Of a stretch of DNA of 64,000 bases, positions 15,239-60,818 are shown one piece after another. Location: contig VGKP01000002.1 in NCBI GenBank assembly GCA_016866975.1, positions 18,866 to 82,865 on the forward strand, given 5' to 3'. Below the pieces are notes generated by a model. That model ran no database searches. It saw nothing but the letters and a program-made list of their open reading frames with translations, and was not told the DNA's origin. This DNA comes from Candidatus Pacearchaeota archaeon (GTDB taxonomy: Archaea > Nanobdellota > Nanobdellia > Pacearchaeales > GW2011-AR1). The translations under genes and the position numbers were made by a program. Position 1 is the stretch's first letter. Each line of letters opens with the position of its first letter.

Positions 15239-15478
15239 TATTTTGACTAGGACAGAGTGTTTAAATTACTTTGTGCTCCAAAAACTTTATATATAATCGA
15301 TTAGAAAAACAAAAATGGCGAATGAAGGAATTGAGAATAAGGTAGGCGGAAATGTCCCAAATTTCGATATACAGGATGAAATAGGCCCTATAGAAATTAG
15401 TCTTAGGTTGAAACGTTTGTATAATCTTAGACCAAAAAAAAGATATTCCACATATTATAAAAAAAGGACATATGGAAA

Positions 15479-16206
15479 TTAAAGCTTCTCAATCGCAGGC
15501 AAAATATCCTCAAATTTTGACAAAATCATTAATGGCTTTCCTTTTTTAAGGCGCCCTTTATCATGAAATCCGAAATCAACAGCAATTGTACGTAAGCCAA
15601 CCTTACTCGCTTCAAAAATATCCCCCAGAGTATCTGTTACAAATATGCATTCATCAATCTTTAAATTGTGCTTTGAAAAAAGTATCCTAAATTTCTCTTC
15701 TTTAGATTTGTGCGTTTCAAATCCTAGAATTTCGCTGAATATGTGATTTATGTCAAGGAACTTGACTAAAACTCCAGCTTTTAAGCTGGAGTTGTTCCTT
15801 GAGCATCCAAAAAACGAGCGCCTGCATCAAACTGCGGCTTTTAAGCCGCAGTGGCGCATCGTTTTTTTGATTTTATTGTTCATAAAATAACTCTTAATTA
15901 TGATTTCTTTATTCGAAGTTATAATATACATTTTATATTTTTTGTTTATTTTAGACAGCTCCTCTTTTATTCTTTCCTCAATTTTCAATACCTTGAACTC
16001 CTCTTCCTGTAACTTAAAGAATTCATCAATTGGGCGTAGTTCCTTTGAAAGTAATAAATTGTCATATTCTTTAAATGCATTTCCGTTGAACATGTCCTTA
16101 TAACTATTTTTAGAAATTGAGGGTTTAATTTTTTATATATGCTGTATGCCAGATTAAAAGTGTCATGTATGACGCCATCAAAATCAAAGATAACCGACTT
16201 GATCAT
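15479..16206 (-). pseudogene. HAD-superfamily phosphatase, disrupted by a 1-nt frameshift and by repeat copy A
   Basis: Motif I MIKSVIFDFDGVIHDT (16206 down). Frame shift near 16120-16124 (CCC run). Motif II YIITSN. The ORF then reads into the repeat (..KKTMRHCGLKAAV stop). The C-terminal part FVTDTLGDIFEASKVGLRTIAVDFG continues in the same phase after the repeat and stops at 15479-15481. Confidence 0.8.
15748..15877 (+). mobile_element. Nested-hairpin repeat, copy A (short form, about 130 nt), inserted in HAD gene
   Basis: TTATGTC-CAAGGAAC-ttgactaaaa-CTCCAGC-ttttaa-GCTGGAG-tt-GTTCCTTG ... GCGCC-tgcatcaaa-CTGCGGC-ttttaa-GCCGCAG-t-GGCGC-atcgTTTTTTTGATTTTATT. Identical to copy B. Confidence 0.8.
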
Positions 16207-17266: not shown

Positions 17267-17415
17267 GCCCGGATGGCCCAGCGGTTACGGCGCGAGATTG
17301 CTACCTAAGGAAACCAATGTTTCCTTGTGGGTCAACCTTCTTTAAGGAAGGAAGACGCAAATGGCAAATATCTCGTTTCCGAAAGGATTCCCAGGTTCAA
17401 ATCCTGGTCCGGGCG
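17267..17415 (+). tRNA. tRNA-Ser (anticodon GCU), class II, with 66-nt intron at canonical 37/38 position (17304-17369)
   Basis: Acceptor GCCCGGA/TCCGGGC. Anticodon stem CGAGA/TCTCG, loop TTGCTA|intron|A. Long variable arm TTTCCGAAAGGATT. T arm CCAGG-TTCAAAT-CCTGG. A relaxed bulge-helix-bulge can be drawn (TGCT/GGCA helix flanked by 3-nt bulges). Confidence 0.85.
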
Positions 17416-17524: not shown

Positions 17525-17787
17525 TGAAGATAGATCCCTACAAACACAAGGAAAGGTACTTAGCCTGGAAAGAAGAAGCCATGAAAGGCATTTCATGCGT
17601 TTCTAAGGCTAATTTTGAGATAATAATGAGATTCCTTACAGATATGGAAGTAGGAGCAAATATAGCGAAAGGAAGCACAAAGGGGGCGAGAAGCTACATC
17701 CGCCTTAATACGCTCAGAGGAAAGCTTTGCTTCTTTGCTAAGAAATTTAACGGGGGCAAGCATGGATTATTATGTCAAGGAACTTGA
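17524..17787 (+). pseudogene. Tyrosine recombinase/integrase, N-terminal fragment truncated by repeat copy B
   Basis: MKIDPYKHKERYLAWKEE..NFEIIMRFLTDMEVGANIAKGSTKGARSYIRLNTLRGKLCFFAKKF resembles the N-terminal SAM-like domain of archaeal integrases (from memory). No catalytic R..HxxR..Y region. The last 6 codons lie in the repeat. Adjacent to a tRNA. Confidence 0.45.
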
Positions 17788-17899
17788 CTAAAACTCCAGC
17801 TTTTAAGCTGGAGTTGTTCCTTGAGCATCCAAAAAACGAGCGCCTGCATCAAACTGCGGCTTTTAAGCCGCAGTGGCGCATCGTTTTTTTGATTTTATT
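17770..17899 (+). repeat. Nested-hairpin repeat, copy B (short form)
   Basis: Identical to copy A over about 130 nt, including the TTATGTC left junction and the TTTTTTTGATTTTATT right end. Confidence 0.85.
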
Positions 17900-18406: not shown

Positions 18407-20212
18407 ATGGAACCAGAAATTATAATTCGAGAGTCATTTTCGGATGAAAGTGACGAGTTTTTTGATAAGATAGAGAAGAAAAACTTTGATTCCAAGGAGA
18501 TAATGGAACTTAAGATTGAAGCAGAGGAAGTATCTCAGGACAATGAGATTAAGGAGCTTTTGTCTTATGAGTCTATAAAGAAATCTCTTGAATATGACCT
18601 TCCTCATCAAAGGGAAGGCGCTCTTAAGATATTGAGAGATCTTAACGGCTCAGGCTTGCTTGCTGACGAAGTAGGTCTTGGAAAGACAGTGACGGCCGGC
18701 ATCGCATTGAGGGAATGTATAGAACGCGGACTAGTGAAGAACACTCTTATCCTGACTCCTCCCTCATTAGTAGATCAATGGGTTGCAGAGCTTAAGGAAA
18801 AATTTAATCTTGACTTCAAAATCATTGAAAAAGAAGAAGACTGGGGCACTTCACCATTTGTCATTGCTTCTCTTGATAGGGTGAAGATACAATACAAAGA
18901 TACTCAGATTTTCAAACATGACCGGGCACATAATATCTCCTGGGACCTGTTGATTGTGGATGAGGCTCACAAATTGAAGGATAAGAATACAGTAAGATGG
19001 GAGTTTGTCGATAAATTGAAGAAAAAGAGGTTTCTGATACTTACAGCTACACCTTTTCAGAATGACTTGTTCGAGTTGTACAATCTTCTAAACCTTCTGA
19101 AGAGGGGCCATCTTGGAACTATCCAGGAATTTAAGAAGCAATTCCTTCATAGAGGAAATAAAAGGCACCCTCTTAACCCCAATGACCTTAAGAGAAGACT
19201 TGACGAGGTAATGGTGAGAAGGAGAAGAGATCAAACAAAAGTAAGTTACAGGAAAAGAATACCTAAGATAGTACCTGTAGAACTTTCTCAGGAAGAGTAT
19301 AGGATATATGATTCCATCTGCGATCTTCTCAAGACAAAGTATCTCTCTGCAAATGGAAATGAGATAAATGGGAGACTGGTGATTTTTGCTATCTTGCCAA
19401 AAATAACTAGCTCATCTCGATCAGCAATGGAGTCGCTTAAGAAGATAGTGGATGATCAGAAATACCATCAGACAACAAGAGAGATAGCATCAAGAATACT
19501 CTCTGATTATAGAATGGTGAAGAAAGATTCAAAGATAGAGAAACTGGTTGAATTGGTTGGGAATATCCTTAAAGAAGAGAAAGATGCCAAGATGTTGATA
19601 TATACAAAACACCCCACTACATTAAGGTATATAGTTGAGAAACTTCAGCCTTTCAATTTAAAGATAGTTGAGTATCTTGGCGGGCTTGATAGAGAGGAGA
19701 AGTCAGAGATTGTAAAGAAGTTCAAAGAAGAGGCTCAGATAATGTTAAGCACAGAGACAGGCTCAGAAGGTCTAAATTTCCAGTTCTGCCATATCCTTAT
19801 CAATTATGATCTTCCATGGAATCCAATGGCTGTAGAGCAGAGGATTGGTCGTTTGGACAGGATTGGGCAGAAAAGCGATATGCAGATATACAGTCTCGCT
19901 ACAAAAAAGACTATTGAGGAGCATGTGGTAGATCTTATAATAAACAAGATGTGTTGCATAGGTCTTGTCATAGGAGAATTACCAATCATATTATTCAATC
20001 TGGGCCTAGATGAGCGCGGGACCGGCGGTGTGAATAAGATAGAAGAGATGCTTATGAATGCCTTTATTGATTCGAAGAATAATCTTGATATTTTTGCATC
20101 CGAGGTCGAAAAAATTGCCGAAATGTTGGAGAAAGGCATGGAAGATTACAAAAAGGCTAAGACTGCCACAATGGAGGTATTGGACAAGAATGAAGGAACT
20201 GGCGGAGCTTAA
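18407..20212 (+). CDS. SNF2/Swi2 family ATPase (helicase core only, 601 aa)
   Basis: Motifs LLADEVGLGKTVTAG (I), LLIVDEAHKLK (II), LILTATPFQNDLFELYNLL (III), STETGSEGLNFQ, NPMAVEQRIGRLDRIGQ (VI). Confidence 0.9.
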   Translation: MEPEIIIRESFSDESDEFFDKIEKKNFDSKEIMELKIEAEEVSQDNEIKELLSYESIKKSLEYDLPHQREGALKILRDLNGSGLLADEVGLGKTVTAGIALRECIERGLVKNTLILTPPSLVDQWVAELKEKFNLDFKIIEKEEDWGTSPFVIASLDRVKIQYKDTQIFKHDRAHNISWDLLIVDEAHKLKDKNTVRWEFVDKLKKKRFLILTATPFQNDLFELYNLLNLLKRGHLGTIQEFKKQFLHRGNKRHPLNPNDLKRRLDEVMVRRRRDQTKVSYRKRIPKIVPVELSQEEYRIYDSICDLLKTKYLSANGNEINGRLVIFAILPKITSSSRSAMESLKKIVDDQKYHQTTREIASRILSDYRMVKKDSKIEKLVELVGNILKEEKDAKMLIYTKHPTTLRYIVEKLQPFNLKIVEYLGGLDREEKSEIVKKFKEEAQIMLSTETGSEGLNFQFCHILINYDLPWNPMAVEQRIGRLDRIGQKSDMQIYSLATKKTIEEHVVDLIINKMCCIGLVIGELPIILFNLGLDERGTGGVNKIEEMLMNAFIDSKNNLDIFASEVEKIAEMLEKGMEDYKKAKTATMEVLDKNEGTGGA

Positions 20213-21461
20213 GGAATTCACGGCGAATTTTTTCAAGAATCTCGGCGCAAAGACTATATGGGAAGGGCAGATGCTCAGGGTAGATAAGGTACCAAAGGAT
20301 TTCGAGGATTTTTTCGGGAAGAAATCTCCTCTGAAGTTGGTCTTCGATAGGTCTGAGGAAGGTAAGGACACAGAACTTATCGCTAAGGGAAGCTTTTTGC
20401 TTAAGGCAATAGCTCTTTATCTCGAGAATAAAGGGCAAACGACTCTACTGAAATTAAGGGTTATGGATCCAAAAGAGCTTCTTAAGCACAAGGTTGTTTT
20501 CAATGATTGCGATATTTTTTCATTTGAAAAGAAACACAGCTATAAGACTATGGTCAGGTTCACTTTCCTTACTACATTCCAGTATCTTAATGAGAAAGAA
20601 CAGAAGATGATATCGATATATCTAGAGGAAGGTAAGCCAGTAACTTTCGATGAGAAAAGGTTCCAGTTTGAGGAAGGAAGAAAGGAAGATATAGAGATAT
20701 CTGGCATAAAGGAGAATTATTCAACATCTAAGGTTATTTTGAAAGAGCTTCTTAAGCCGCAGGTTGCAGATATAGGAACTAATTTGAAGTCTAAATTATC
20801 TAGGGAATTACAGAGGATAGATTCACACTATAAAAGACAAGAGGAGGAGATCGACAAACAAGTGCAATCATTAAACACGCAATTGAAAGAGCTTGAAGAT
20901 CCAAATAGCAAGGTCGACAAAAAGAATGCTGAGTTAAAATTAAAGAGAATCAATGAACAGTTGCAAAAAATAACTGAAGAAGATAAAAAGTCCAAGTTGA
21001 AAAAGGAAAAAGATTTCCTTCTTAATGATGAGGTCCAGAAGCACGGGCTCAATATGGATACCAAGCTTTTGAATACTACGGTGATATATTATCCAGTTTA
21101 CGAATGCAGGATGCTATTGAAAAATAACGAGGTCATTGGGAAGCCCTTAGATTTTTTATACGACTCAAAGGAGAGTAGCTTTACCTCTATAAATTGCGAA
21201 TCATGCAAGGAGTCTCTCTCTTCTCTGAAATTATGTTCATCCGGACATGTAATCTGCAAATCTTGCATTCTTCCATGCAAGGGTTGTACACAGGGATCCT
21301 GCAAGATATGCCAGTTCAGGAGATGTAATAGATGCGAGAGAGAATATTGCAAAAGATGTACTAAGAAGTGCAGCCGGTGCTTCAAGGAGTTCTGTAAGAC
21401 CCACGTCATTCCAACGAGCCCAACTAAGGTTTTATGTTTGGGATGCTCAGGGAATTTTTAA
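20190..21461 (+). CDS. SNF2-associated protein: YqhG-like N-terminal domain, coiled coil, C-terminal multi-CxxC zinc-ribbon cluster
   Basis: Start moved to the ATG at 20190 (MKELAELKEF..), overlapping the SNF2 stop by 23 nt. Lys/Glu-rich coiled coil (res about 210-300). C-terminal CESC..CSSGHVICKSC..CKGC..CKIC..CNRCEREYCKRC..CSRC..CLGC. Confidence 0.7.
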   Translation: MKELAELKEFTANFFKNLGAKTIWEGQMLRVDKVPKDFEDFFGKKSPLKLVFDRSEEGKDTELIAKGSFLLKAIALYLENKGQTTLLKLRVMDPKELLKHKVVFNDCDIFSFEKKHSYKTMVRFTFLTTFQYLNEKEQKMISIYLEEGKPVTFDEKRFQFEEGRKEDIEISGIKENYSTSKVILKELLKPQVADIGTNLKSKLSRELQRIDSHYKRQEEEIDKQVQSLNTQLKELEDPNSKVDKKNAELKLKRINEQLQKITEEDKKSKLKKEKDFLLNDEVQKHGLNMDTKLLNTTVIYYPVYECRMLLKNNEVIGKPLDFLYDSKESSFTSINCESCKESLSSLKLCSSGHVICKSCILPCKGCTQGSCKICQFRRCNRCEREYCKRCTKKCSRCFKEFCKTHVIPTSPTKVLCLGCSGNF

Positions 21462-21466
21462 AGTCT

Positions 21467-21811
21467 TTATGTCAAGGAACTTGACTAAAACTCCAGCTTT
21501 TAAGCTGGAGTTGTTCCTTGAGCATCCAAACCTCAAGAATCGAAGATTCTTGATGGCATCCAAGAACAATGTTCTTGGTGAAACGAGCGCCTGCATCAAA
21601 CTGCGGCTCATCAGGAATCTAAGATTCTTGAATGCCATCGAGGATTAACATCCTCGAGGTTTAAGCCGCAGTGGCGCATCGTTTTTTTGATATTATTTCG
21701 GGAACCGAAGAAAACCAAACCTCCTCAGGAATCTAAGATTCTTGAATGCCATCGAGGATTAACATCCTCGAGGTTTAAGTCGCAGTGGCGGATTGTTTTT
21801 TTGATTGTAAT
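21467..21811 (+). repeat. Nested-hairpin repeat, copy C (composite: long form 21467-21697 plus partial second unit 21698-21811, carrying three inserted double-hairpin modules)
   Basis: Same ends as A/B. 50-nt module at 21531-21580 between the two hairpins. 52-nt module at 21608-21659 inside the loop of hairpin 2. Near-identical 52-nt module again at 21722-21773. Confidence 0.85.
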
Positions 21812-21856
21812 AATTTAACTAGAAATATTTTTAAATGTCATTCAAAGGCAAAAACC

Positions 21857-22720
21857 ATGGATAACACTAGTACAGAAAATCCTGTGAAAATAATCAATCA
21901 GATAATTACAAACACAGATATTTTCGTCTTTAGTTACAATCCTCAAACAAAACTCTATACATATTCTCGCCCATTCACACTCCAAGAAGCCACATTACTG
22001 GCAACAGACACAAATACATTCATCAAAAATAACTATGCCTCTGCTAAGGGTCTTCAAGGAAGCCTCGATGTAGATCCAGTCACAGCAGAGATTTATAATA
22101 TTAGTACACTCAAAGGCATTTTAGTAAATCAAGTATTAACGGACAAAACGAAAGAAACCAACAATCCTCAAAGACTTCCAACAATTCAGGAAGGAATTCA
22201 GCATTATAATGCAGGCCTACTGAATGCAAACGCACTGTGTAAAGATATTCTAGTCGACCACGGCATTGCCGTCTACAGTGATGACAATCCAGATCAAGAA
22301 GTTGCACAAGCACTAATAGAGACTTCGAGAACTGCTGTCCTCAACAGTGCAGAACAAGAAATAAACGTCTTGCCTTTAGTGGCATCATTTTCTTCTCTAG
22401 GATTGCGCCCAGGTGGAAAGTGTTATGGAGTACTTCCAGTTATAGTTTCCTCTAAAGGATTGATTTACGGAGAGAAAGCGCAAGATTTCTTAAACGATAA
22501 TAACTTCATTCAGGATATTAATGGCGTTCACGGGGTGGTCTGGGACTACTACGACAGTTGGTGCGCCAGCTGGGACGATAACTTGAACATTTTCTACAGT
22601 AATTGCAGGTTGGGGAGACTTATTGCCGAAGGCAGCGCAGAAATATTAGAAGATGAAATACGCAGTATTTTTGCTCCCACTCGTTGGAGCCTTGATGCAA
22701 TTCTCCTAGCAAGGGAATAA
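21857..22720 (+). CDS. Hypothetical protein (287 aa)
   Basis: Start moved to the first ATG outside repeat C (MDNTSTENP..). No motif recognised. By eye less AT-rich than its neighbours. Confidence 0.55.
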   Translation: MDNTSTENPVKIINQIITNTDIFVFSYNPQTKLYTYSRPFTLQEATLLATDTNTFIKNNYASAKGLQGSLDVDPVTAEIYNISTLKGILVNQVLTDKTKETNNPQRLPTIQEGIQHYNAGLLNANALCKDILVDHGIAVYSDDNPDQEVAQALIETSRTAVLNSAEQEINVLPLVASFSSLGLRPGGKCYGVLPVIVSSKGLIYGEKAQDFLNDNNFIQDINGVHGVVWDYYDSWCASWDDNLNIFYSNCRLGRLIAEGSAEILEDEIRSIFAPTRWSLDAILLARE

Positions 22721-34946: not shown

Positions 34947-34997
34947 GCCTGTCGCGCCGCGTGCGACAGGCCCTTCACCTCAGCCATGTGAGGTGAA
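34947..34997 (+). terminator. GC-rich tandem double hairpin at a convergent gene junction
   Basis: GCCTGTCGC-gccgcgt-GCGACAGGC then TTCACCTCA-gccatg-TGAGGTGAA (9-bp stems), starting 1 nt after the 34946 stop. Confidence 0.45.
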
Positions 34998-35861: not shown

Positions 35862-37562
35862 ATGGCTCAAGAGGTGTTATGGTCTTTAAGTATTATTCTT
35901 GGTATTGTAGCAATAACCACAGTTATAGCAAGGATGATAAAGCAGCCTCCAATAATCGCATACCTAATTGCAGGGATAATTGTAGGCCCCTTGTTTCTAA
36001 AATTTCTTAGCCCCATCAGTCCATCTGCAGAGATTATTCAAATATTTTCCCATATTGGTGTGGCATTTCTTCTTTTTATAGTAGGTCTATCTCTTGATTT
36101 TAGGGTATTGAAGGAGATAGGAGGCGTTGCAAGCGCGGCAGGGTTTGCAGAAATTCTCTTGACGGGAGTTATAGGGGGATTTATCGCTATAGGTATAGGT
36201 TTCTCTTCATTGACAGCACTTTATATTGGTGCAGCCCTTGCCTTTTCATCTACAGTTGTCGTAGTCAAGATACTCTCAGACAAGAAAGAAATAGATACTC
36301 TCCATGGCCGCATCGCTCTGGGTATACTCATAGTTGAAGATTTTATTGCCAGCATAGCACTGATGTTGGTCCCTCTTTTAAATGAGGGTGGCGGATTGTA
36401 CTCTATTTTGTATAAGGTAGTGATTGTGGTGGCCCTCATAGGAGTAGTTTTCTTGGGAGCCACATTTGTATTAGGCAGATTTATGAATTATCTCTCTAGG
36501 AACCAGGAAGTGCTTTTCTTGTTCGGCATAGCTTGGGCATTGCTTCTTGCATCACTTTTTGATTATCTTGGATTTTCTCTTGAGATAGGGGCATTGATTG
36601 CAGGCATGTCTCTCGCTTCAAGTAAATATACTATGGATCTTGGAAGCAAGATGAAGCCATTAAGGGATTTCTTTGTAGTGTTATTCTTTGTATTCTTCGG
36701 AAGTCAGCTTGCAGGTACCATTTCCTGGAATCTCGTCCAGAATGCAGCCCTTCTTTCATTGTTCATTATAATAGGTAAGCCAGTTATAGTGATGAGTATC
36801 TTGAGGATTTTTGGATATAAGAAAAGGACAAATTTTCTTGCAGGTTCAAGTCTTGCCCAGATAAGCGAGTTCTCACTTATCCTTATACTGTTGGGCTTTA
36901 CTCTAGGTCATGTACCGCAGGAGATTATGAACTTGGCAATTTTGGTAGCGATAATAACTATAGGGATAAGCAGTTATGGGATGTATTATGCACATTCGAT
37001 ATTCAATAAGATAAGCCACATGCTCAATGTATTTGAAGGCAAGAGCCCTCACTCAATTAAGAATGTAGAGAACAATTACGACGTGGTGCTTATAGGCTAT
37101 CATAGGATGGGATACAAGATACTTGGTTCTTTGAAGAAAATAAAATCTCCATTTATAGTGGTCGACCATAATCCCAAAGTCATTCTTTCACTTTCAAAAT
37201 GGGGAGTGAACTGCATCTATGGAGATGCAAGCGATAAAGATTTCTTGAGGCAGCTTGAGTTGCACAAGGTAAAACTGATAATATCCACAATTCCTGAACC
37301 AGAGCCAAACAGAGCAATACAAGAATATCTAAATGAGAATGGAATAAAGTCCGCATTCATAGCGACTGCAGAACAGCCCAGGGAAGCTTTCAGCTTATAT
37401 GATCAAGGAGTTGATTATGTCCTTATTCCTCATCATCTCGGAGGCGAGTATGCTGCCCACATACTTGAGAAATTCAAGACTAACAAGAATCTTTACAAGC
37501 AGCTTGGGAAAAGGCATAGTGAACAGCTTAAGAAAGGCAAGGATCACTCAGAGTATCTTTAA
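35862..37562 (+). CDS. Cation:proton antiporter (CPA2/Kef-type) with C-terminal RCK/TrkA-N domain
   Basis: About 12 TM helices with Na_H-exchanger-like GLSLDF/ALIAGMSLA segments. C-terminal Rossmann VVLIGYHRMGYKIL..DASD. Confidence 0.85.
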   Translation: MAQEVLWSLSIILGIVAITTVIARMIKQPPIIAYLIAGIIVGPLFLKFLSPISPSAEIIQIFSHIGVAFLLFIVGLSLDFRVLKEIGGVASAAGFAEILLTGVIGGFIAIGIGFSSLTALYIGAALAFSSTVVVVKILSDKKEIDTLHGRIALGILIVEDFIASIALMLVPLLNEGGGLYSILYKVVIVVALIGVVFLGATFVLGRFMNYLSRNQEVLFLFGIAWALLLASLFDYLGFSLEIGALIAGMSLASSKYTMDLGSKMKPLRDFFVVLFFVFFGSQLAGTISWNLVQNAALLSLFIIIGKPVIVMSILRIFGYKKRTNFLAGSSLAQISEFSLILILLGFTLGHVPQEIMNLAILVAIITIGISSYGMYYAHSIFNKISHMLNVFEGKSPHSIKNVENNYDVVLIGYHRMGYKILGSLKKIKSPFIVVDHNPKVILSLSKWGVNCIYGDASDKDFLRQLELHKVKLIISTIPEPEPNRAIQEYLNENGIKSAFIATAEQPREAFSLYDQGVDYVLIPHHLGGEYAAHILEKFKTNKNLYKQLGKRHSEQLKKGKDHSEYL

Positions 37563-37572
37563 TAAGGGCTCT

Positions 37573-37796
37573 AGGGAACCTCGGCATCTTAAAGGGAGTT
37601 GACCCACAAGACGTCAGGAATAAAAGATTCCTGAGCGCGCTCAAGGACTTCGTCCTTGACGACCGTAGGTTTCTTAAAGGGAGTTGACCCACAAGAACCG
37701 TAGGTTCTTAGGAAGTTGACCCAAAAGGCCTCAAGAATCTGCCGATTCTTGACGGTCATCAGGGATTATAAATCCCTGAGAGAAACTTGGTTCCCT
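37573..37796 (+). repeat. Expanded composite member (H) of the hairpin-repeat family
   Basis: Closed by AGGGAACC/GGTTCCCT. Contains three tandem units CTTAAAGGGAGTTGACCCACAAGA (37588-37611, 37673-37696, degenerate 37707-37727) and two double-hairpin modules (37614-37659, 37731-37779). Confidence 0.7.
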
Positions 37797-37797
37797 T

Positions 37798-37810
37798 AGG
37801 TTTAAATATC
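37798..37810 (+). promoter_or_regulatory. BRE/TATA-like box (AGGTTTAAATATC) for serS
   Basis: TATA about 29 nt upstream of the serS ATG (37830), implying a leaderless or near-leaderless mRNA. Confidence 0.5.
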
Positions 37811-37829
37811 AGAGATTGCTAGTCGGACA

Positions 37830-39092
37830 ATGCTCGATATCAGGCTGTTCCGTGAAAATCCTCAGATAATCAAAGAGAGTCAAAAGAAAAGAGGAATGCC
37901 TACTGAAGAAGTAGATCTTGTGATGAAGTTGGACAATGAATGGAGGGCGCTCAAAGCAGAAGTTGACCACTTAAGAAATAAGCGCAATCAGGTTTCTAAG
38001 GAAATTAGCGAATTGAAGAAGAAAAGAAAGAAGGCAGACACGTTACTCAAAGAAGCAAAAAAGATTCCGAAGATGCTTATAGAGAAGGAGAACAAGATGA
38101 AGGAGCTTAATGAGAAACGCGACAATATTCTCAAAGAAATACCTAATATCATCGATCAATCTGTTCCACTCGGAGACGCTTCTCATAAAAAAGTCATCCT
38201 CGAGCATGGTAAGAATAAGTCAACATTCACTCATAAAGATCATGCAGATATTCTTGAAGCGCTCGATATGCTCGACACGCAAAAAGCATCTAATGTTGCA
38301 GGATCGCGCTTCTACTACTTGAAAGGTGACCTTGTGAAGCTCAATCTGGCCATTATGAGTTTTGCCTTAGATATCTTGCAGAAGAAAAGATTCACACTGG
38401 TGCAGCCACCGTATATGCTCCGCAAAGCAGCTCTTGAAGCAGCGCTGCCCCTCAAGGCATTTGAGGAAATGATTTATAAAATTGAAGGGGAGGACTTGTA
38501 CTTAATAGGCACTGCGGAGCATGCGCTCAATGCATATGGCATTAATACCACATTCTCACCTGCAGAGCTTCCGCTTCGCCTTGCAGGGATTTCTCCTTGT
38601 TTTAGGAAGGAAGCGGGCTCGCACGGCAAGGACACGAAAGGCATATTTAGGATCCATCAGTTTGAGAAGATCGAACAGTTTATTTTCTGCAAGCCTGAAG
38701 ATTCATGGAGAGAGTTTGATCTCATCCTCAAAAATTCAGAGGAAATTCTCAAGGCTCTTGAAATCCCCTTCCGGTTTGTCATCCTCTCATCTCAAGACAT
38801 GGGGCGCGTTCCTACTAAAACGGTGGACTTTGAAGGTTGGTTCCCAAGCCAGAATGCTTACCGCGAACTGGGGTCATGCTCAAATTGTTTAGACTATCAG
38901 GCGCGGAGGAGCAACACCAAGTATCAGGACAATAATGAATTCACATTCGTGCACACTCTTAATAACACAGCCATTGCAACTGAGCGCATGATGGCTTGCA
39001 TTATAGATAATAACCAGCAGAAAGACGGCACAATAAAGATTCCAGAAGTCCTTCAGCCCTACATGAACGGCAAGAAAGTGATAGGAAATTAA
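37830..39092 (+). CDS. serS: Seryl-tRNA synthetase
   Basis: N-terminal coiled-coil arm (MLDIRLFRENP..), class II motifs (FRKEAGSHGKDTKGIFRIHQFEKIEQF, GSCSNCLDYQARR, TLNNTAIATERMMACIIDN). Confidence 0.92.
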   Translation: MLDIRLFRENPQIIKESQKKRGMPTEEVDLVMKLDNEWRALKAEVDHLRNKRNQVSKEISELKKKRKKADTLLKEAKKIPKMLIEKENKMKELNEKRDNILKEIPNIIDQSVPLGDASHKKVILEHGKNKSTFTHKDHADILEALDMLDTQKASNVAGSRFYYLKGDLVKLNLAIMSFALDILQKKRFTLVQPPYMLRKAALEAALPLKAFEEMIYKIEGEDLYLIGTAEHALNAYGINTTFSPAELPLRLAGISPCFRKEAGSHGKDTKGIFRIHQFEKIEQFIFCKPEDSWREFDLILKNSEEILKALEIPFRFVILSSQDMGRVPTKTVDFEGWFPSQNAYRELGSCSNCLDYQARRSNTKYQDNNEFTFVHTLNNTAIATERMMACIIDNNQQKDGTIKIPEVLQPYMNGKKVIGN

Positions 39093-39139: not shown

Positions 39140-40576
39140 ATGAATTTTAATTGGATTTTTAATCGTGATGAAAAAGTACCGCTCAATAATGATTCTTCGG
39201 AGAGAGTGGAAGGATTTGAGCACGAGTATGCGATTGAATTTGATGAGATCGCTGATAAAGATGAAAGAGACAACTATATTGTGCAGAAATTACGGGGAGC
39301 GGAGGGCGTTAATGCCCCCAATGTTTATGGTATGCCTGCGCGGCACCGTTTTAATGGAGGAAGAGTGCACATTGATATGAAACATCTTGAAGGGTGTACA
39401 CCAGAAGTTACGAATACATTGGATTTACTGAAATACGATCGAGAGTTAGACCTGTTTGTTCTTGATCTCTTTGGCCCAGCATACAAACCACGAATTTACA
39501 AAATGAGTAGGGACGCTCGCGATACATTTGGCGGACTTCACAGAAACATCATGACTAGGCTTAAACCCGATGTTCGGGACAGAGAATCACTCTTACTTTG
39601 GGCAGTAGTGGAGAAAGTTCTCAATGGAACAGGTTACCAGAATCCTGATGGCCAATACGAACTGCTTCAACGTCGCACATACATAGGAGATGCTCTATCA
39701 GACAACTCTACAGGGGGCAAAGGATCTCGGCCACTTCTTAATCTTAGGGAAGAGAGACACTGTAAGGTAGATGGATGGTACCGTTTTCATGATATTGCAG
39801 GCGATGGTAACATGAATCAGGTAGCACTTGCTCTTAGCCAGGTGCTCTGGAAATGTGTTCTACAGCTAGCAGAAGAAGATAAGCTGCCAAGAATCCCATA
39901 TTATTCAGGAAAGCATTCAAATGAAGCCGTACGCGATATGGATAGCATTTGCTGCCGCCACAGTGACTGGACTCTCAAAGGAACACCTCTTGAATTTAGA
40001 TCTCTCACTTCTGTCTATCGCGAATTCTACAAAGTCATTAGAGGAGAGCTCTATGGTCAGAATACATTTACTGACAAAATAATTGATGTATTTGGAGACA
40101 CAATTCCTGCTCTAGATAATATCAATAATGATCCCTATGCTCTTGCAGGAAGGCTCGATTGGGTGGGAAAGAAATTCATGATTGAATATTTTATGGGTGC
40201 AACAGGAAGAGGTCCTGAAAGCAATGAAGTACAGAGCCTTAATGTAGATTATCACCGTATTGACGAAGGAGGTTTGTTCCATCTTACACGTTTAAACGAT
40301 GGGTGGATTGAGAACGAGGTTTCGGATAAAGAGGCGCGCACCGCCAGAAATACTCCTCCATTGACACGGGCGCATGCACGAGGAGAAATTGCACAAGCAT
40401 TCTCAGAGATTGCCATGAAGAATGGATTATCCATTCTTGTTGACTGGGAATCAATTGCTCTTTACAATAAAAGTACATCTCCTGTCTGGACGTGCAATTT
40501 TCCCAGACCAGCACACACTTATGTTGAATGCGTGAGTGAATTCAAAAGTTTCATCAGTAATTGTTCCAAGGCATAA
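39140..40576 (+). CDS. Pup-ligase/deamidase (PafA/Dop) family protein, divergent paralogue (active-site HENY replaced by HRNI)
   Basis: GFEHEYAIEF, NGGRVHIDMKHLEGCTPE, FGGLHRNI, GSRPLLNLREERH, RFHDIAGDGNM, RLDWVGKKFMIEY, LNVDYHRI, TPPLTRAHARGE, VDWESI. Collinear with PafA motifs as I remember them. Confidence 0.75.
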   Translation: MNFNWIFNRDEKVPLNNDSSERVEGFEHEYAIEFDEIADKDERDNYIVQKLRGAEGVNAPNVYGMPARHRFNGGRVHIDMKHLEGCTPEVTNTLDLLKYDRELDLFVLDLFGPAYKPRIYKMSRDARDTFGGLHRNIMTRLKPDVRDRESLLLWAVVEKVLNGTGYQNPDGQYELLQRRTYIGDALSDNSTGGKGSRPLLNLREERHCKVDGWYRFHDIAGDGNMNQVALALSQVLWKCVLQLAEEDKLPRIPYYSGKHSNEAVRDMDSICCRHSDWTLKGTPLEFRSLTSVYREFYKVIRGELYGQNTFTDKIIDVFGDTIPALDNINNDPYALAGRLDWVGKKFMIEYFMGATGRGPESNEVQSLNVDYHRIDEGGLFHLTRLNDGWIENEVSDKEARTARNTPPLTRAHARGEIAQAFSEIAMKNGLSILVDWESIALYNKSTSPVWTCNFPRPAHTYVECVSEFKSFISNCSKA

Positions 40577-40710
40577 ATTATTACTTTAAAATTCGTGGGG
40601 CCGTGGGTCAGTTTAGCAAAGCTTAAACCTTCGGGAGGTATGCACCTCATACACCAAATAAGCAATATAAACATATAAAATATTAAAAAGGGTTTATATT
40701 TGCCAAATTG

Positions 40711-42177
40711 ATGAAAGACAGGATTACACCTCGCGAAGCATTGGAAAGAAAAGCTGCCCCTCTCGTGTTTTTTGACCATATTCCTCAATATAACCGGAAT
40801 CGAATAATCTCGAGTGAACAGGAGAATGGGCAGAAATTAAGGAAAAAAGTGCATAAGGATTACGAAAAGAAAAGTGGTTGGGAGACCGAATTTACAGCAT
40901 ACTTGTCTGGATTTCTGCCAGATGTGGTGAGTCTTGGGGGAAGGATATATGCAGATGCAAACCATGTAGAGTTTGCACGGGCGGAATGCTCAAGCCCTCT
41001 GGAAGCAGTTGTTCACGAGGATGCTTTTGACAGGTTCGGTTTTAATCTTCTCACAGGCACCTTGAGACTTGTTCGTAAGCTCTATAAGAACAGTATAGAT
41101 TTTGGCAATCCGAAAAGGAATTCTCCTCCTGTAAGCTTCGGCTTCCACGAAAATTACAGCACAAAAATAATGTTTGGCCAAAGCAATCCTTCAGGTTTGT
41201 TGGCATTGGTTCCTCACCTAATATCTCGTACAATCTTTGGGGGTGCAGGATCATTACATAAGGCAAATAAATTTTTAAGGGCCCAGCGCTCTCTCTTTGT
41301 TAATAAATTGTGGAGCTTTAATGCTATCAAGGACGAAAGAGGGATAATCTGCACTCGCGTACAGCCACACACAGAGATTTCTGGTCTTCAGAGGCTACAA
41401 CTTACTTGTGGAGACGCCCTTATATCTCCAGTAAATCGCTTCCTTCTTTATGGCACAACAGCAACGGTAGTTGACCTAATAGAAGATAGGATAATTCCAT
41501 TATGTGATTATGACACAAGCTACGCAGTTGAAGATTTTCATGGAATAACTTATGACCCTGAGAACTATATATTAAGAGGGTTCCCATCTAAGAATTGGAC
41601 TGCTCTGGATGTACAAAGGAGGATTCTTGATAGTGCAATTAAGTCTTACTCGCATAGGGATCCTCAGACAAATGCCATTCTGTTTCTATGGGAAGATACT
41701 CTTAATAAGTTGGAATATGATCCATTTCAGCTTGTTGGAAGGCTAGATGCAATTACCAAGAAAGCATTATATACTTGTCTTGATGAGAGATTTCCAGATG
41801 TCCCTGAAGATTCTTTTTGGCAGATGAGGGGCATAGACATGAATTATCACGATATTAATCCAAACTATAGTATTTTTCAGGTAATGCGTTCCGAGGGGAT
41901 TATGGAGGATTTATATTCCAATAAATTATTTTCATGGTATATGCAAAATCCGCCTCCAAAAACCAGGGCGCATTTTAGGGGCAATCTTGCAAAAATTCTA
42001 ATTAGGGCAAAAGAGGATTTAGCAGTCCTTGATGGAGATGAATGGGATAAATGCGTTCCATTATCAGATATCTACAATATTTATCCGAATCTATGGGATT
42101 TAGATCTTTCTATAGATGACCCGTTTAATTCTTACAATGATCGTCTCACAGAGATAAAGGGAATTTTATCTCATTAA
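40711..42177 (+). CDS. Pup-ligase/deamidase (PafA/Dop) family protein, motifs intact
   Basis: GWETEF, GGRIYADANHVEFARAECSSP, FGFHENYS, SRTIFGGAG, AQRSLFV, RGIICTRVQPH, RLQLTCGDALISP, RLDAITKKALY, IDMNYHDI, PPPKTRAHFRGN. Confidence 0.8.
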   Translation: MKDRITPREALERKAAPLVFFDHIPQYNRNRIISSEQENGQKLRKKVHKDYEKKSGWETEFTAYLSGFLPDVVSLGGRIYADANHVEFARAECSSPLEAVVHEDAFDRFGFNLLTGTLRLVRKLYKNSIDFGNPKRNSPPVSFGFHENYSTKIMFGQSNPSGLLALVPHLISRTIFGGAGSLHKANKFLRAQRSLFVNKLWSFNAIKDERGIICTRVQPHTEISGLQRLQLTCGDALISPVNRFLLYGTTATVVDLIEDRIIPLCDYDTSYAVEDFHGITYDPENYILRGFPSKNWTALDVQRRILDSAIKSYSHRDPQTNAILFLWEDTLNKLEYDPFQLVGRLDAITKKALYTCLDERFPDVPEDSFWQMRGIDMNYHDINPNYSIFQVMRSEGIMEDLYSNKLFSWYMQNPPPKTRAHFRGNLAKILIRAKEDLAVLDGDEWDKCVPLSDIYNIYPNLWDLDLSIDDPFNSYNDRLTEIKGILSH

Positions 42178-42192
42178 CTTAAACGAGCCTAA

Positions 42193-42319
42193 TTATGTCG
42201 GGAACCGATGAAAATCACACCTTTCAAGGTATGGTGGTTCCCGAGCATCTCCAAAAACGAGCGCCTGCAACAAACCTCGGCTTTTAAGCCGAGGTGGCGC
42301 ATCGTTTTTGTGATATTTA
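42193..42319 (+). repeat. Nested-hairpin repeat, copy E (variant stems)
   Basis: TTATGTC-CGGGAACC-gatgaaaatc-..-GGTTCCCG-agcatctcc-AAAAACGAGCGCC-tgcaacaaa-CCTCGGC-ttttaa-GCCGAGG-t-GGCGC-atcgTTTTTG. Inner stem changed on both arms relative to A/B. Confidence 0.8.
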
Positions 42320-43074: not shown

Positions 43075-43198
43075 TATTCACCTCCTCAATATTAAGTAAT
43101 GTTCTAAATATATAAGGGTTCCTATTGCTATCGTCAACGCTCGTAGAAATCCTCTACCTATAGGTAGAGGTTAAAATTGGAATGATTTTCTCTGGAGA

Positions 43199-43258
43199 CA
43201 CAAAACCTCAAGCAAGTCCAGGCATTTAAGCCGAGGTTAAAACCCGAAGGGTTTTGTG
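43199..43258 (+). repeat. Degenerate fragment (G) related to hairpin 2 of the repeat family
   Basis: CACAAAACC..GGTTTTGTG outer stem enclosing CCTC[aagcaagtccag]GCATTTAAGCCGAGG (compare copy E CCTCGGCTTTTAAGCCGAGG). Confidence 0.35.
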
Positions 43259-43437
43259 ACTTTCAAAAAGCAGGCTGGCTATAAACTCCAAACTATTTAG
43301 AATAACATTAATTATCAAAATCCATTTTGTGATTTGTTAGATAGAAAATAGTGTGAGAAAATTACGGAAATTAAAGTTTTTTTCGTATAATTTGAAGTCA
43401 TAAAAGGTTTTATAAAATAAATTAAACTAAATAAAAT

Positions 43438-57440: not shown

Positions 57441-57572
57441 ATAAAATCAACTTATGCTGGATTTTTAAATTTTTCTAAATGCGATCGACTCCTATCTAAT
57501 CTATCGATAGACAGTTCGGTTATGTCGCGAATTAGGTTGAAAACTACATTCTTTAGGGCGCAGATGAATTCG

Positions 57573-57649
57573 CGAGCATGTCTAAAAACGAGCGCTGCAA
57601 CAAACAATACCCTTTAAGGTATGGTGCGCATTGTTTTTATGATCTTCAA
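57573..57649 (+). repeat. Nested-hairpin repeat, copy F (solo second-hairpin unit, variant stems)
   Basis: CGAGCATgtctAAAAACGAGCGC-tgcaacaaaca-ATACC-ctttaa-GGTAT-g-GTGCGC-attgTTTTTATGATCTTC. Overlaps the 3' end of the cdd pseudogene. Confidence 0.7.
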
Positions 57650-60180: not shown

Positions 60181-60432
60181 ATGGTTTCCTTAAAAGTATG
60201 GATGGGAGTCACAGGAAATCCGCTAAATTTGGGAGTTCTAGAGAAAAGAGTCAAAGACATGGTTGTTGGAGAGAAAGGATTTATCGAGTATAGGGCAATC
60301 TGTTTTATTGAAGGCCAGGTACATTGTCTGAATTTATGTGCAAATGTATATCCAAATTTTAGACAAAAGAAGGGCATGCCTATAGAAAGGATTGGAAAGA
60401 GAAAAATTGATTATGTCAAGGAACTTGACTAA
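60181..60432 (+). CDS. Hypothetical ORF whose last 7 codons lie in repeat D (possibly the 5' half of a gene split by the repeat)
   Basis: The ORF ends ..KIDYVKELD with the stop inside the repeat. See the finding on frame arithmetic. Confidence 0.35.
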   Translation: MVSLKVWMGVTGNPLNLGVLEKRVKDMVVGEKGFIEYRAICFIEGQVHCLNLCANVYPNFRQKKGMPIERIGKRKIDYVKELD

Positions 60433-60590
60433 AACTCCAGCTTTTAAGCTGGAGTTGTTCCTTGAGCATCCAAACCTCAAGAATATTCTATTCTTGATGG
60501 CATCCAAGAACAATGTTCTTGGTGAAACGAGCGCCTGCATCAAACTGCGGCTTTTAAGCCTCAGTGGCGCATCGTTTTTTTGATGATATT
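60411..60590 (+). repeat. Nested-hairpin repeat, copy D (long form with one double-hairpin module at 60475-60524)
   Basis: Same as A/B plus a 50-nt module CCTCAAGAATattctATTCTTGAtggcaTCCAAGAACaatGTTCTTGGTG. One mismatch in the inner stem of hairpin 2 (GCCTCAG). Confidence 0.85.
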
Positions 60591-60818
60591 GATCTCAGGC
60601 TCGCCAAGCATACATGGTCTATCTGTGAGTATCCTTTTGGAGACCATGACTGGGACATTAATCCTGATATTGTGCGTCTCAGATATAATGGTGAATGTAA
60701 GAAGAGAAAGCACAGGACATTGCAACAACAGCTCTCCAGTGCAGTCAGAAATGAAAACTACGAGAAGGCGGCTGTTATAAGGGACAGAATAAATGCAAGA
60801 TCTAAAAATAAGGATTAG
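60564..60818 (+). CDS. UVR-domain protein fragment (only start codon lies inside repeat D)
   Basis: C-terminal LQQQLSSAVRNENYEKAAVIRDRINA is a UvrB/UvrC-type UVR motif. No ATG outside the repeat. Confidence 0.4.
   Translation: MAHRFFDDIDLRLAKHTWSICEYPFGDHDWDINPDIVRLRYNGECKKRKHRTLQQQLSSAVRNENYEKAAVIRDRINARSKNKD

Follow-up and report, generated by a model that had tools for sequence, protein, structure and literature searches.

What are pairs of small hairpins doing inside the loop and the linker of a larger folded repeat, and how did they get there? The question is raised by positions 21467-21811 of a 64,000-nucleotide (nt) stretch of a Candidatus Pacearchaeota genome (GenBank assembly GCA_016866975.1, contig VGKP01000002.1, positions 18,866 to 82,865 of the forward strand; hereafter the window), in which double-hairpin units of ~50 nt, here called modules, interrupt a repeat of ~120 nt, here called the host. 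Our preferred reading, which we hold to be moderately probable, is that the region comprises two adjacent copies of a non-autonomous mobile element with three modules riding inside, the host being moved by an HUH enzyme in peel-and-paste fashion and the modules being its passengers.

The window, which has a G+C content of ~38% and abundant housekeeping genes, was compared with a set of fetched loci (L-labels below). It is a segment of a DPANN archaeal chromosome: the seryl-tRNA synthetase (SerRS) that it encodes shows 100% identity to an NCBI protein assigned to Candidatus Pacearchaeota archaeon, and it holds a tRNA-Ser gene with an intron. To find further host copies, we searched GTDB representative genomes and JGI metagenomes, once each, for the conserved core of the right end. 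These scans returned ~45 copies, from Lake Tanganyika metagenomes, from the Woesearchaeota metagenome-assembled genome (MAG) CAZOCP01, and from a contig assigned to Liptonbacteria in which an archaeal-type tRNA with an intron is encoded. The last of these, VGJV01000002.1 (Ga0194121_10000124; 123 kb, loci L003, L019, L034 and L036), belongs to a 'Candidatus Liptonbacteria' MAG yet combines the archaeal-type tRNA with the same repeats, and was probably mis-binned with this bacterium of the candidate phyla radiation. Viral contigs gave 0 matches to the host core and 0 to the loop module. Across copy C, the host locus at the center of this study, the independent metagenome contig Ga0194121_10000612 matches at 100% identity, and other assemblies of the window locus are likewise 100% identical.

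When the entire window was searched, with filters off, using a covariance model of 17 modules, exactly six modules were returned, at 52-71 bits (E 1e-22 to 3e-16), with the next match at 13 bits; the same six were seen in a scan for perfect hairpins and by direct reading of 21200-22100, 37450-37950 and 60300-60700 (Table 1). An initial annotation of the sequence had placed six modules at these sites, and its coordinates needed refinement by only a few nt. About twenty further distinct module matches are found in the other loci. Across the 17 aligned modules the layout is constant, with 2 nt, a first hairpin of 8-9 bp bearing TCARGAAT-type arms, a spacer of exactly 6 nt, a second hairpin of 8-9 bp, and 2-3 closing nt. 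The compensatory changes reported for this double hairpin are borne out: 98.5% of stem cells are paired, against 32-56% when the partners are slid, and both sides have changed in 9 of 16 pairs.

A search of the window with a host model found copies A, B, C, D, E and F and nothing else of note; the diverged copy F is an addition to the initial annotation. Alignment of five copies shows that C and D carry, relative to A and B, the clean 50-nt insertion first described, between CATCCAAA and AAACGAGCGCC. Copy C has a further insertion, which splits the TTTTAA loop of hairpin 2 behind its first T (CTGCGGCT + 51 nt + TTTAAGCCGCAG), at the site originally proposed, although its length is 51 rather than 52 nt. 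The 3' portion of the copy then recurs, positions 21607-21691 and 21721-21805 being 95% identical; the aligned cores of modules M2 and M3 are the same, and the modules differ only at the second base (CA versus CC), but the two segments show 4 mismatches over 85 nt and not the single substitution first counted. Because the second segment is preceded by TTATTTCGGGAACCGAAGAAAACCAAACC, the diverged 5' arm of another host subtype, it belongs to a second, tandem, chimeric element (C2) rather than to a simple duplication of the first (C1). C2 starts with a diverged G-type 5' arm that runs up to the hairpin-1 loop, continues with a module, and ends with a K-type hairpin-2 3' arm through TGAT. Analogous collapsed forms lie at L015 1200-1322 and L029 7540-7640; C2, L015 and L029 7552 all join a hairpin-1 5' arm, a module and a hairpin-2 3' arm. 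The composite architecture of C1 is found again in L019, at an unrelated site 3 nt after tRNA-Lys. As a separate observation, three metagenome contigs break inside host copies, L040 starting in A and L001 and L042 ending in E and B (window 15751, 42222 and 17875, respectively): the host family fragments assemblies of this organism.

Judging from the comparison of its copies, the larger repeat is mobile DNA. The host has sharp boundaries, starting with GTC and ending with TGAT, and its flanks are unrelated up to the boundary. At 55 candidate sites, positions -4 to -1 before GTC are T (49 sites), T, G, A or C (37, 8, 7 and 3), A (47) and T (49). The right ends listed have TGAT, or a near variant, as their last bases, and in the GTDB and metagenome scans right-end cores that belong to an element always have a left end directly beside them. 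The ends (GTCAAGG.. and ..TTTTTTGAT) are not complementary, and the host thus lacks terminal inverted repeats. No target-site duplication of the host was found apart from an unavoidable 2-nt ambiguity: since AT ends both flank and element, a 2-bp AT duplication gives the same sequence as scarless insertion. Where elements stand in tandem, the next begins 0 nt (L012), 3 nt (L004) or 5 nt (C1/C2) after the preceding TGAT. Among the fetched loci there was no empty site from which the host is absent; that expected for copy D would read ..AAAATTGATTAT joined to GATATTGATCTC.., and the circle junction of an excised host, in which ..TGAT meets GTC.., would read ..CGTTTTTTTGAT joined to GTCAAGGAAC...

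Many copies interrupt genes. Exact deletion from GTC to TGAT yields long open reading frames (ORFs) across the junction at more than 10 sites, and in HAD, Nudix and exonuclease genes one Pfam match spans the junction (Table 1). The element lies sense to the split gene in D, L018 and L024, and antisense in A, L002 and L029; other copies follow directly on stretches that encode N-terminal membrane helices, for example in a metalloprotease gene and in a gene whose product exceeds 1,980 residues. The elements contain stop codons and split the gene. Once copy D is removed, 79 and 77 codons are open across the junction. No homologue was found with the re-joined protein as query, and for that reason the case for insertion into a real gene at D consists of the open frames and of a UVR motif only. 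The HAD gene that copy A interrupts (window ~15290-16200, minus strand) is also frameshifted, in an A-run between its DxDG motif and the remainder, which marks either a pseudogene or a homopolymer sequencing error.

That so many split genes are open on both sides might also mean that the host is intron-like and that the genes stay functional because the archaeal splicing endonuclease removes it or translation bypasses it. The occurrence of one module type in a tRNA-Lys intron and of another motif of the window (motif X, below) in a tRNA-Ser intron, together with the AAGGAAC-type arms shared by intron hairpins, points the same way, and recalls the archaeal bulge-helix-bulge introns, including the mobile tRNA introns of Thermoproteales. 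However, neither host nor module boundaries form a bulge-helix-bulge. Of the two host junctions, the 5' one falls within an ATG/CAT helix and the 3' one in an unpaired tail, and conservation is lacking in those exon bases on which the central 4-bp helix would depend; for the module, the loop junctions GGCT/CATC and GAGG/TTTAAG likewise offer no such helix. Antisense copies would need the same structure on the opposite strand, the variable codon phase of the junctions excludes codon-based bypass, and the frameshift in the HAD gene, as in a decaying pseudogene, fits real disruption rather than splicing. Boundary structure, codon phase and antisense copies rule out both a bulge-helix-bulge intron and translational bypass as such, and we give an intron-like explanation hardly any credence.

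The host folds into two hairpin domains. In each, an inner hairpin of 7-8 bp, whose loop is usually TTTTAA in both domains, and a one-sided, A-rich internal loop are enclosed by an outer stem; the 5' sides are A-rich. The domains are joined by the linker GAGCATCCAAAAAA, and the second is followed by a T-rich stretch ending in TGAT. Over seven subtypes, 97.3% of stem cells are paired and 18 pairs have changed on both sides, against 35-46% paired in slid controls. The two halves of the element assort independently (K5-K3, G5-G3, K5-G3 and K5-H3), the K3 and G3 forms differ at few positions, and some stems are chimeric, with arms from different subtypes (for example, CTGCGGC..GCCGAGG). Loops have been inverted repeatedly (CGAAG/CTTCG, TTC/GAA, TTTCAA/TTGAAA and TTTTAA/TTAAAA); recurrent inversion of this kind is typical of DNA palindromes and points to change at the DNA level. 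The two hairpins of L024, and likewise those of L039, both show TTAAAA in place of TTTTAA, a coupled change that fits one factor reading both ends.

Much of this would also suit a family of structured non-coding RNAs, acting as 3' untranslated region, terminator or regulatory elements with a U-run end, in which the double hairpins would be optional expansion domains. Covariation is strong in all helices, folding is very stable (z about -10), hairpin 1 of M2 and M3 contains G.T pairs on the plus strand, a run of seven T lies at the 3' end, and copies C and E begin 9-19 nt past the stop codons of plus-strand genes. What speaks for DNA instead is that copies break conserved protein domains, lie antisense in several genes, and follow the strand of the contig rather than that of the local gene: all 38 of 38 copies are co-oriented within their contig, across 14 contigs with at least two copies, an agreement expected by chance at ~2^-16 in six contigs of sample Ga0194121 alone, and at 26 of 37 sites the strand of the element has positive GC skew. 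Upstream, no promoter is conserved and the flanks are unrelated up to TNAT; the loops are freely inverted; and Rfam 15 searched at gathering score over the window and 12 loci returned only tRNAs and one 5S rRNA, with no match to the elements. Module stems also contain A.C mismatches, which are G.U pairs on the opposite strand, and template switching in DNA palindromes can itself produce compensatory changes. On this balance we regard an RNA family as improbable. An outward promoter for adjacent genes, with the TTTTAA loop ~28 nt from the end, was considered and rejected, there being no excess of gene starts at either end.

If the host is mobile DNA, how would it move? In the mechanism that we favor, an HUH transposase (Y1, IS200/IS605-type) acting in trans would mobilize it by peel-and-paste, in the form of single-stranded DNA. 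By analogy, it may work like a palindrome-associated transposable element (PATE). PATEs, which measure 100-300 nt, are non-autonomous members of the IS200/IS605 family known from haloarchaea and also from cyanobacteria and Geobacillus. The host resembles PATEs and IS200/IS605 elements in lacking inverted terminal repeats, in having a hairpin near each end, in its insertion 3' of a 4-5-nt motif, in a related right-end tetranucleotide, and in same-strand orientation (PMC3201880, PMC10055086); apart from the AT ambiguity, its junctions look scarless and free of duplication, as in those elements. In IS608, TTAC lies 19 nt 5' of the foot of hairpin 1 and AAAG stands directly 5' of the foot (PMC3201880), and the flanking motif of ISGst2 is TTTAT (PMC10055086); in the host, TTAT lies 20 nt 5' of the hairpin-1 foot and the four bases before the foot are AAAA. 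As candidate guides, AAAA with TTAT at the left end would follow the IS608 pattern of AAAG with TTAC, and ACAA at the right end suits TGAT in subtypes G3, H3 and F, with little variation among copies. Relative to PATEs, the elements described here have no matching tnpA that we found, doubled terminal stems, a DPANN lineage, nested double-hairpin modules and an unusually high share of copies inside genes.

The modules form a separate repeat family, distinct from the host, and in this respect the initial annotation, which had proposed a second, smaller unit, was right. Loop modules in different hairpins are 87-94% identical while the stems that enclose them (CTGCGGC versus CCACACC) are unrelated, and C1 and L019, without a difference in their host parts, have modules that diverge by ~6%. 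Within hosts, modules sit only at three places, all unpaired in the host fold, namely the hairpin-1 loop, the A-run linker and the hairpin-2 loop, and these places are the same in this genome and in the distant Woesearchaeota MAG. In one element of the latter (L002 7171-7470) all three places are filled by modules, and an unrelated double hairpin is present as a fourth. Each place has its own unpaired frame (Table 1), the linker frame being the exact reverse complement of the loop frame (CC/TGGCAT/TG versus CA/ATGCCA/GG); loop-type modules are carried by K3 right ends in C1 and L019, by G3 in L003 and L006, and by a right-end-like fragment of the host repeat system, the Y unit, at L029 9745. 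Y units are intact there and in L012, where they stand directly before a host, and degenerate at window 43196-43260.

Modules also occur without a host. Intergenic copies stand at L028 2303, L019 10166 and L032 3033; one lies inside the tRNA-Lys intron (L019 7914), another just 5' of tRNA-Leu (L012 6566), and M5 and M6 share the spacer between NhaP and SerRS of the window. The initial annotation would have been undone by modules that always kept the same flanks and were never found elsewhere; these free copies have unrelated flanks. The NhaP-SerRS spacer measures 267 nt in the window, against 42 and 186 nt in syntenic relatives, where it contains neither modules nor the units of motif X that surround them; the comparison of related genomes proposed earlier thus yielded module-free relatives of this spacer, though no host locus differing only by a module. 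The array of X units is homologous to the 150-nt intron of tRNA-Lys(CUU) at L019 7858-8079 (minus strand), and the 78-nt intron of tRNA-Ser(GCT) (window 17267-17415) contains, in reverse complement, motif X (CTTAAAGGGAGTTGACCCACAAGA), a sequence that recurs upstream of SerRS. From these matches, tRNA-intron-like sequence seems to have been copied into the intergenic NhaP-SerRS spacer. In a distant host relative at L047 19120-19245 (GCA_053534655.1), the outer stem of the second domain, TCAAGAACC/GGTTCTTGA, has arms typical of modules, a similarity that hints at a possible shared origin of host stems and module hairpins.

How, then, did the nesting arise? Composites occur at new sites as units (C1 and L019; the G-type host with loop module in L003 and L006), so that hosts with modules have spread as whole units, and recombination among copies yields mosaics and collapsed chimeras. 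We envisage that modules would have entered the host at the DNA level, at unpaired T or A runs, or alternatively that only insertions at unpaired places left the host able to move; since then they would have been carried along as passengers. Recombination between copies would shuffle modules among host subtypes, and recombination between two loop modules of one element, such as that at L002 7171, would leave collapsed chimeras. Several loop contexts of modules are indeed recombination chimeras. Because position types are conserved, composites have spread as whole units, loop contexts are chimeric and the junctions share no motif, hitch-hiking and recombination explain much of the pattern.

Several observations weigh against this account of host and passengers. 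The guide matches the motif imperfectly at the commonest right end (TCAA with TGAT, in K3). No Y1/HUH transposase was found in the ~390 kb fetched, by a weak check consisting of a six-frame regular-expression search for the TnpA N-terminus on ~336 kb and Pfam searches of 10 ORFs; the latter, the ten large ORFs of the window, all encode housekeeping or surface proteins. No autonomous copy, and none with a coding insert between the ends, turned up in the scans of GTDB and metagenomes. Outer stems enclose each terminal hairpin and are absent from IS608, and a 2-bp AT duplication, or A/T insertion of the IS91/Helitron kind, would give host sequences like those of scarless insertion. For the modules, alignment of the junctions, through which a target motif was to be derived, revealed nothing shared beyond flanking T or A runs and no duplication, so that the part of the initial annotation that had the smaller unit targeting the larger is left without support from the junctions. 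With their reverse-complementary frames, linker modules may be inverted loop modules, but alignment scores of the two are alike in both orientations, the hairpins being near-palindromic; no locus with and without a module in otherwise identical DNA was present among the fetched loci; and the type-specific module frames, conserved across distant genomes, fit an old composite as well as repeated insertion.

The last point leads to the converse history, in which the long composite is ancestral, the 120-nt forms are its deletion derivatives, and modules were never mobile on their own, all transfers being recombination or gene conversion. Position-specific frames kept between the window genome and the distant Woesearchaeota MAG, and the replication of composites as units, are in keeping with it; many of the 'new' loop contexts are chimeric with mismatched arms (C2, L029 7552 and L015), as recombination within modules would produce, and the small number of K3/G3 differences makes gene conversion easy. 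Yet short forms would need identical, exact deletion end points at three sites, and the loop modules so alike inside unrelated stems, the identical host parts of C1 and L019 with diverged modules, and the hostless copies with unrelated flanks (L028, L019 10166, L032 3033, the tRNA-Lys intron, the tRNA-Leu leader and the SerRS spacer) are hard to reconcile with it. An ancestral long form is a serious partial alternative for host-borne modules and fails for free and tRNA-associated copies; as an explanation of the whole we consider it unlikely. Beyond our preferred passenger reading, we put forward much more tentatively, as less likely than not, that the double hairpin is itself a minimal mobile 'hyperparasite' that integrates into unpaired parts of folded single-stranded DNA and then rides the host. 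It would accordingly land in the loops and linker of a single-stranded DNA transposon, possibly in the excised circle of that transposon, and in tRNA introns and leaders. If true, it would be the smallest known two-hairpin transposable unit, with a target choice guided by structure rather than by sequence.

Table 1. Host copies, modules, module types and interrupted genes. Positions are those of the window unless a locus is named; orientation is relative to the window strand or, for interrupted genes, to the gene.
Feature	Position	Strand or orientation	Description
Host copy A	15752..15871	+	short, 120 nt; antisense within a minus-strand HAD-hydrolase gene
Host copy B	17774..17893	+	short; 100% identical to A
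Target motif TTAT of C1	21467..21470	+	flanking, outside the element
Host copy C1	21471..21691	+	complete GTC..TGAT, type K5-K3, two modules, 221 nt
Host copy C2	21697..21805	+	tandem collapsed chimera; weak match to whole-host model
Host copy E	42197..42314	+	G5-G3 subtype; compensatory stem changes versus A and B
Y unit, degenerate	43196..43260	+	ATTTAA-loop hairpin, then AAAACCC GAA GGGTTTT, then GTGAC; repeat family D2
Host copy F	57524..57643	+	diverged subtype; 103 bits
Host copy D	60415..60584	+	K5-K3, one linker module, 170 nt; in small ORF with UVR motif
Module M1	21531..21580	+	linker type CC..TGGCAT..TG, in the A-run between both hairpin domains of C1; 64 bits
Module M2	21609..21659	+	loop type CA..ATGCCA..GG, after first T of hairpin-2 TTTTAA loop of C1; 71 bits
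Module M3	21723..21773	+	loop type, within C2; 70 bits
X-unit array	37570..37800	+	three tandem units (..CTTAAAGGGAGTTGACCCACAAGA..ACCGTAGGTT..); modules in units 1 and 3, not 2; repeat family D6
Module M5	37612..37661	+	frame CG..GCGCGC..CG, outside any host, within motif-X unit
Module M6	37729..37781	+	CC..CGGTCA..GA, outside any host; 53 bits
Module M4	60475..60524	+	linker type, in host copy D; 62 bits
Linker type	window C and D; L019; L032; L002		CC..TGGCAT..TG; middle of host A-run
Loop type	window C; L019; L003; L006; L029 9745; L002		CA..(A/C)TGCCA..GG; one base into the loop of hairpin 2, or of hairpin 1 in collapsed copies
Hairpin-1-loop type	L002 7197		CC..CGGCCA..GG; loop of hairpin 1
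X-context type	window 37612; tRNA-Lys intron (L019); 5' of tRNA-Leu (L012); L032 3033		CG..GCG(C/T)GC..CG; within motif X or free
Gene split, HAD_2	window copy A	antisense	one Pfam match, residues 34-145, spans junction at residue 87
Gene split, NUDIX	L018	sense	one Pfam match spans junction
Gene split, RNase_T	L002 3751	antisense	one Pfam match spans junction

Some features near these elements deserve mention in their own right. Just upstream of copy C, a 467-aa ORF (20058-21461), without Pfam annotation in the contig table, has a very cysteine-rich tail with many CxxC motifs. Between convergent genes at 34947-34997 lies a perfect 9-bp hairpin pair unrelated to the modules (GCCTGTCGC..GCGACAGGC and TTCACCTCA..TGAGGTGAA), probably a bidirectional terminator-like structure. 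Two adjacent genes (39140-40576 and 40708-42177) match Pfam Pup_ligase (PF03136), a PafA/Dop-like family unusual for a DPANN archaeal genome. At L018 4450-4640, a segment comprising a tRNA-Arg 3' end and ~85 nt forms three tandem repeats downstream of the tRNA gene, which resemble nested attachment-site remnants of integrating elements.

Other small repeats invite comparison. REP sequences of enterobacteria and pseudomonads, with their BIME and REPIN arrangements and RAYT genes, are extragenic palindromes of 20-40 nt with a conserved 5' GTAG that form inverted doublets, and are thought to be moved by an IS200-like Y1 enzyme. Modules are like them in being short covarying palindromes in mosaics, with fixed short linkers and hairpin doublets, and in that free copies are mostly intergenic; they differ in that their hairpins start with TCARG and form tandem doublets with a 6-nt spacer, and no RAYT was seen in the loci examined. 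With no GTAG, no inverted doublets and no RAYT seen, and only the extragenic location of free copies in agreement, we rejected assignment of the module to REPs or REPINs, and we know of no REP nested in the loops of another transposon. ERIC elements (127 bp) have long variants with ~70-bp insertions at fixed internal sites, and in pneumococcal BOX elements boxA and boxC are separated by a 45-nt boxB that is present in 0 to n copies. Both ERIC (also called IRU) and BOX share with host and module a modular build and stable stem-loops, but they are bacterial and strictly intergenic, without a defined flanking motif or strand bias, and to our knowledge insertion into a hairpin loop has not been reported for either. 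Rickettsia palindromic elements, of ~100-150 nt, lie within coding sequences of a reduced genome and, being in frame, are translated, whereas the host has stop codons and splits the gene.

Nesting and modular mosaics are thus not new, with ERIC, BOX and BIME as precedents; what is new is the DPANN lineage, the high share of copies in genes, and a two-hairpin unit placed precisely in the loops of a probable single-stranded DNA transposon. DPANN archaea have tiny genomes usually thought poor in transposable elements, and here the host reaches a density of ~1 copy per 10 kb and splits genes for HAD, Nudix, exonuclease, metalloprotease and giant surface proteins. This matters for the annotation of DPANN MAGs, in which split genes are called as two ORFs, and bears on genome decay or regulation. 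The family also provides a natural series, in which one element has acquired extra hairpin pairs at defined unpaired positions, their number being 0, 1, 2 or 3-4. Should peel-and-paste transposition be the true mechanism, this series would show how much extra structure is tolerated by the end hairpins, and it may offer a handle on whether very small hairpin pairs move alone.

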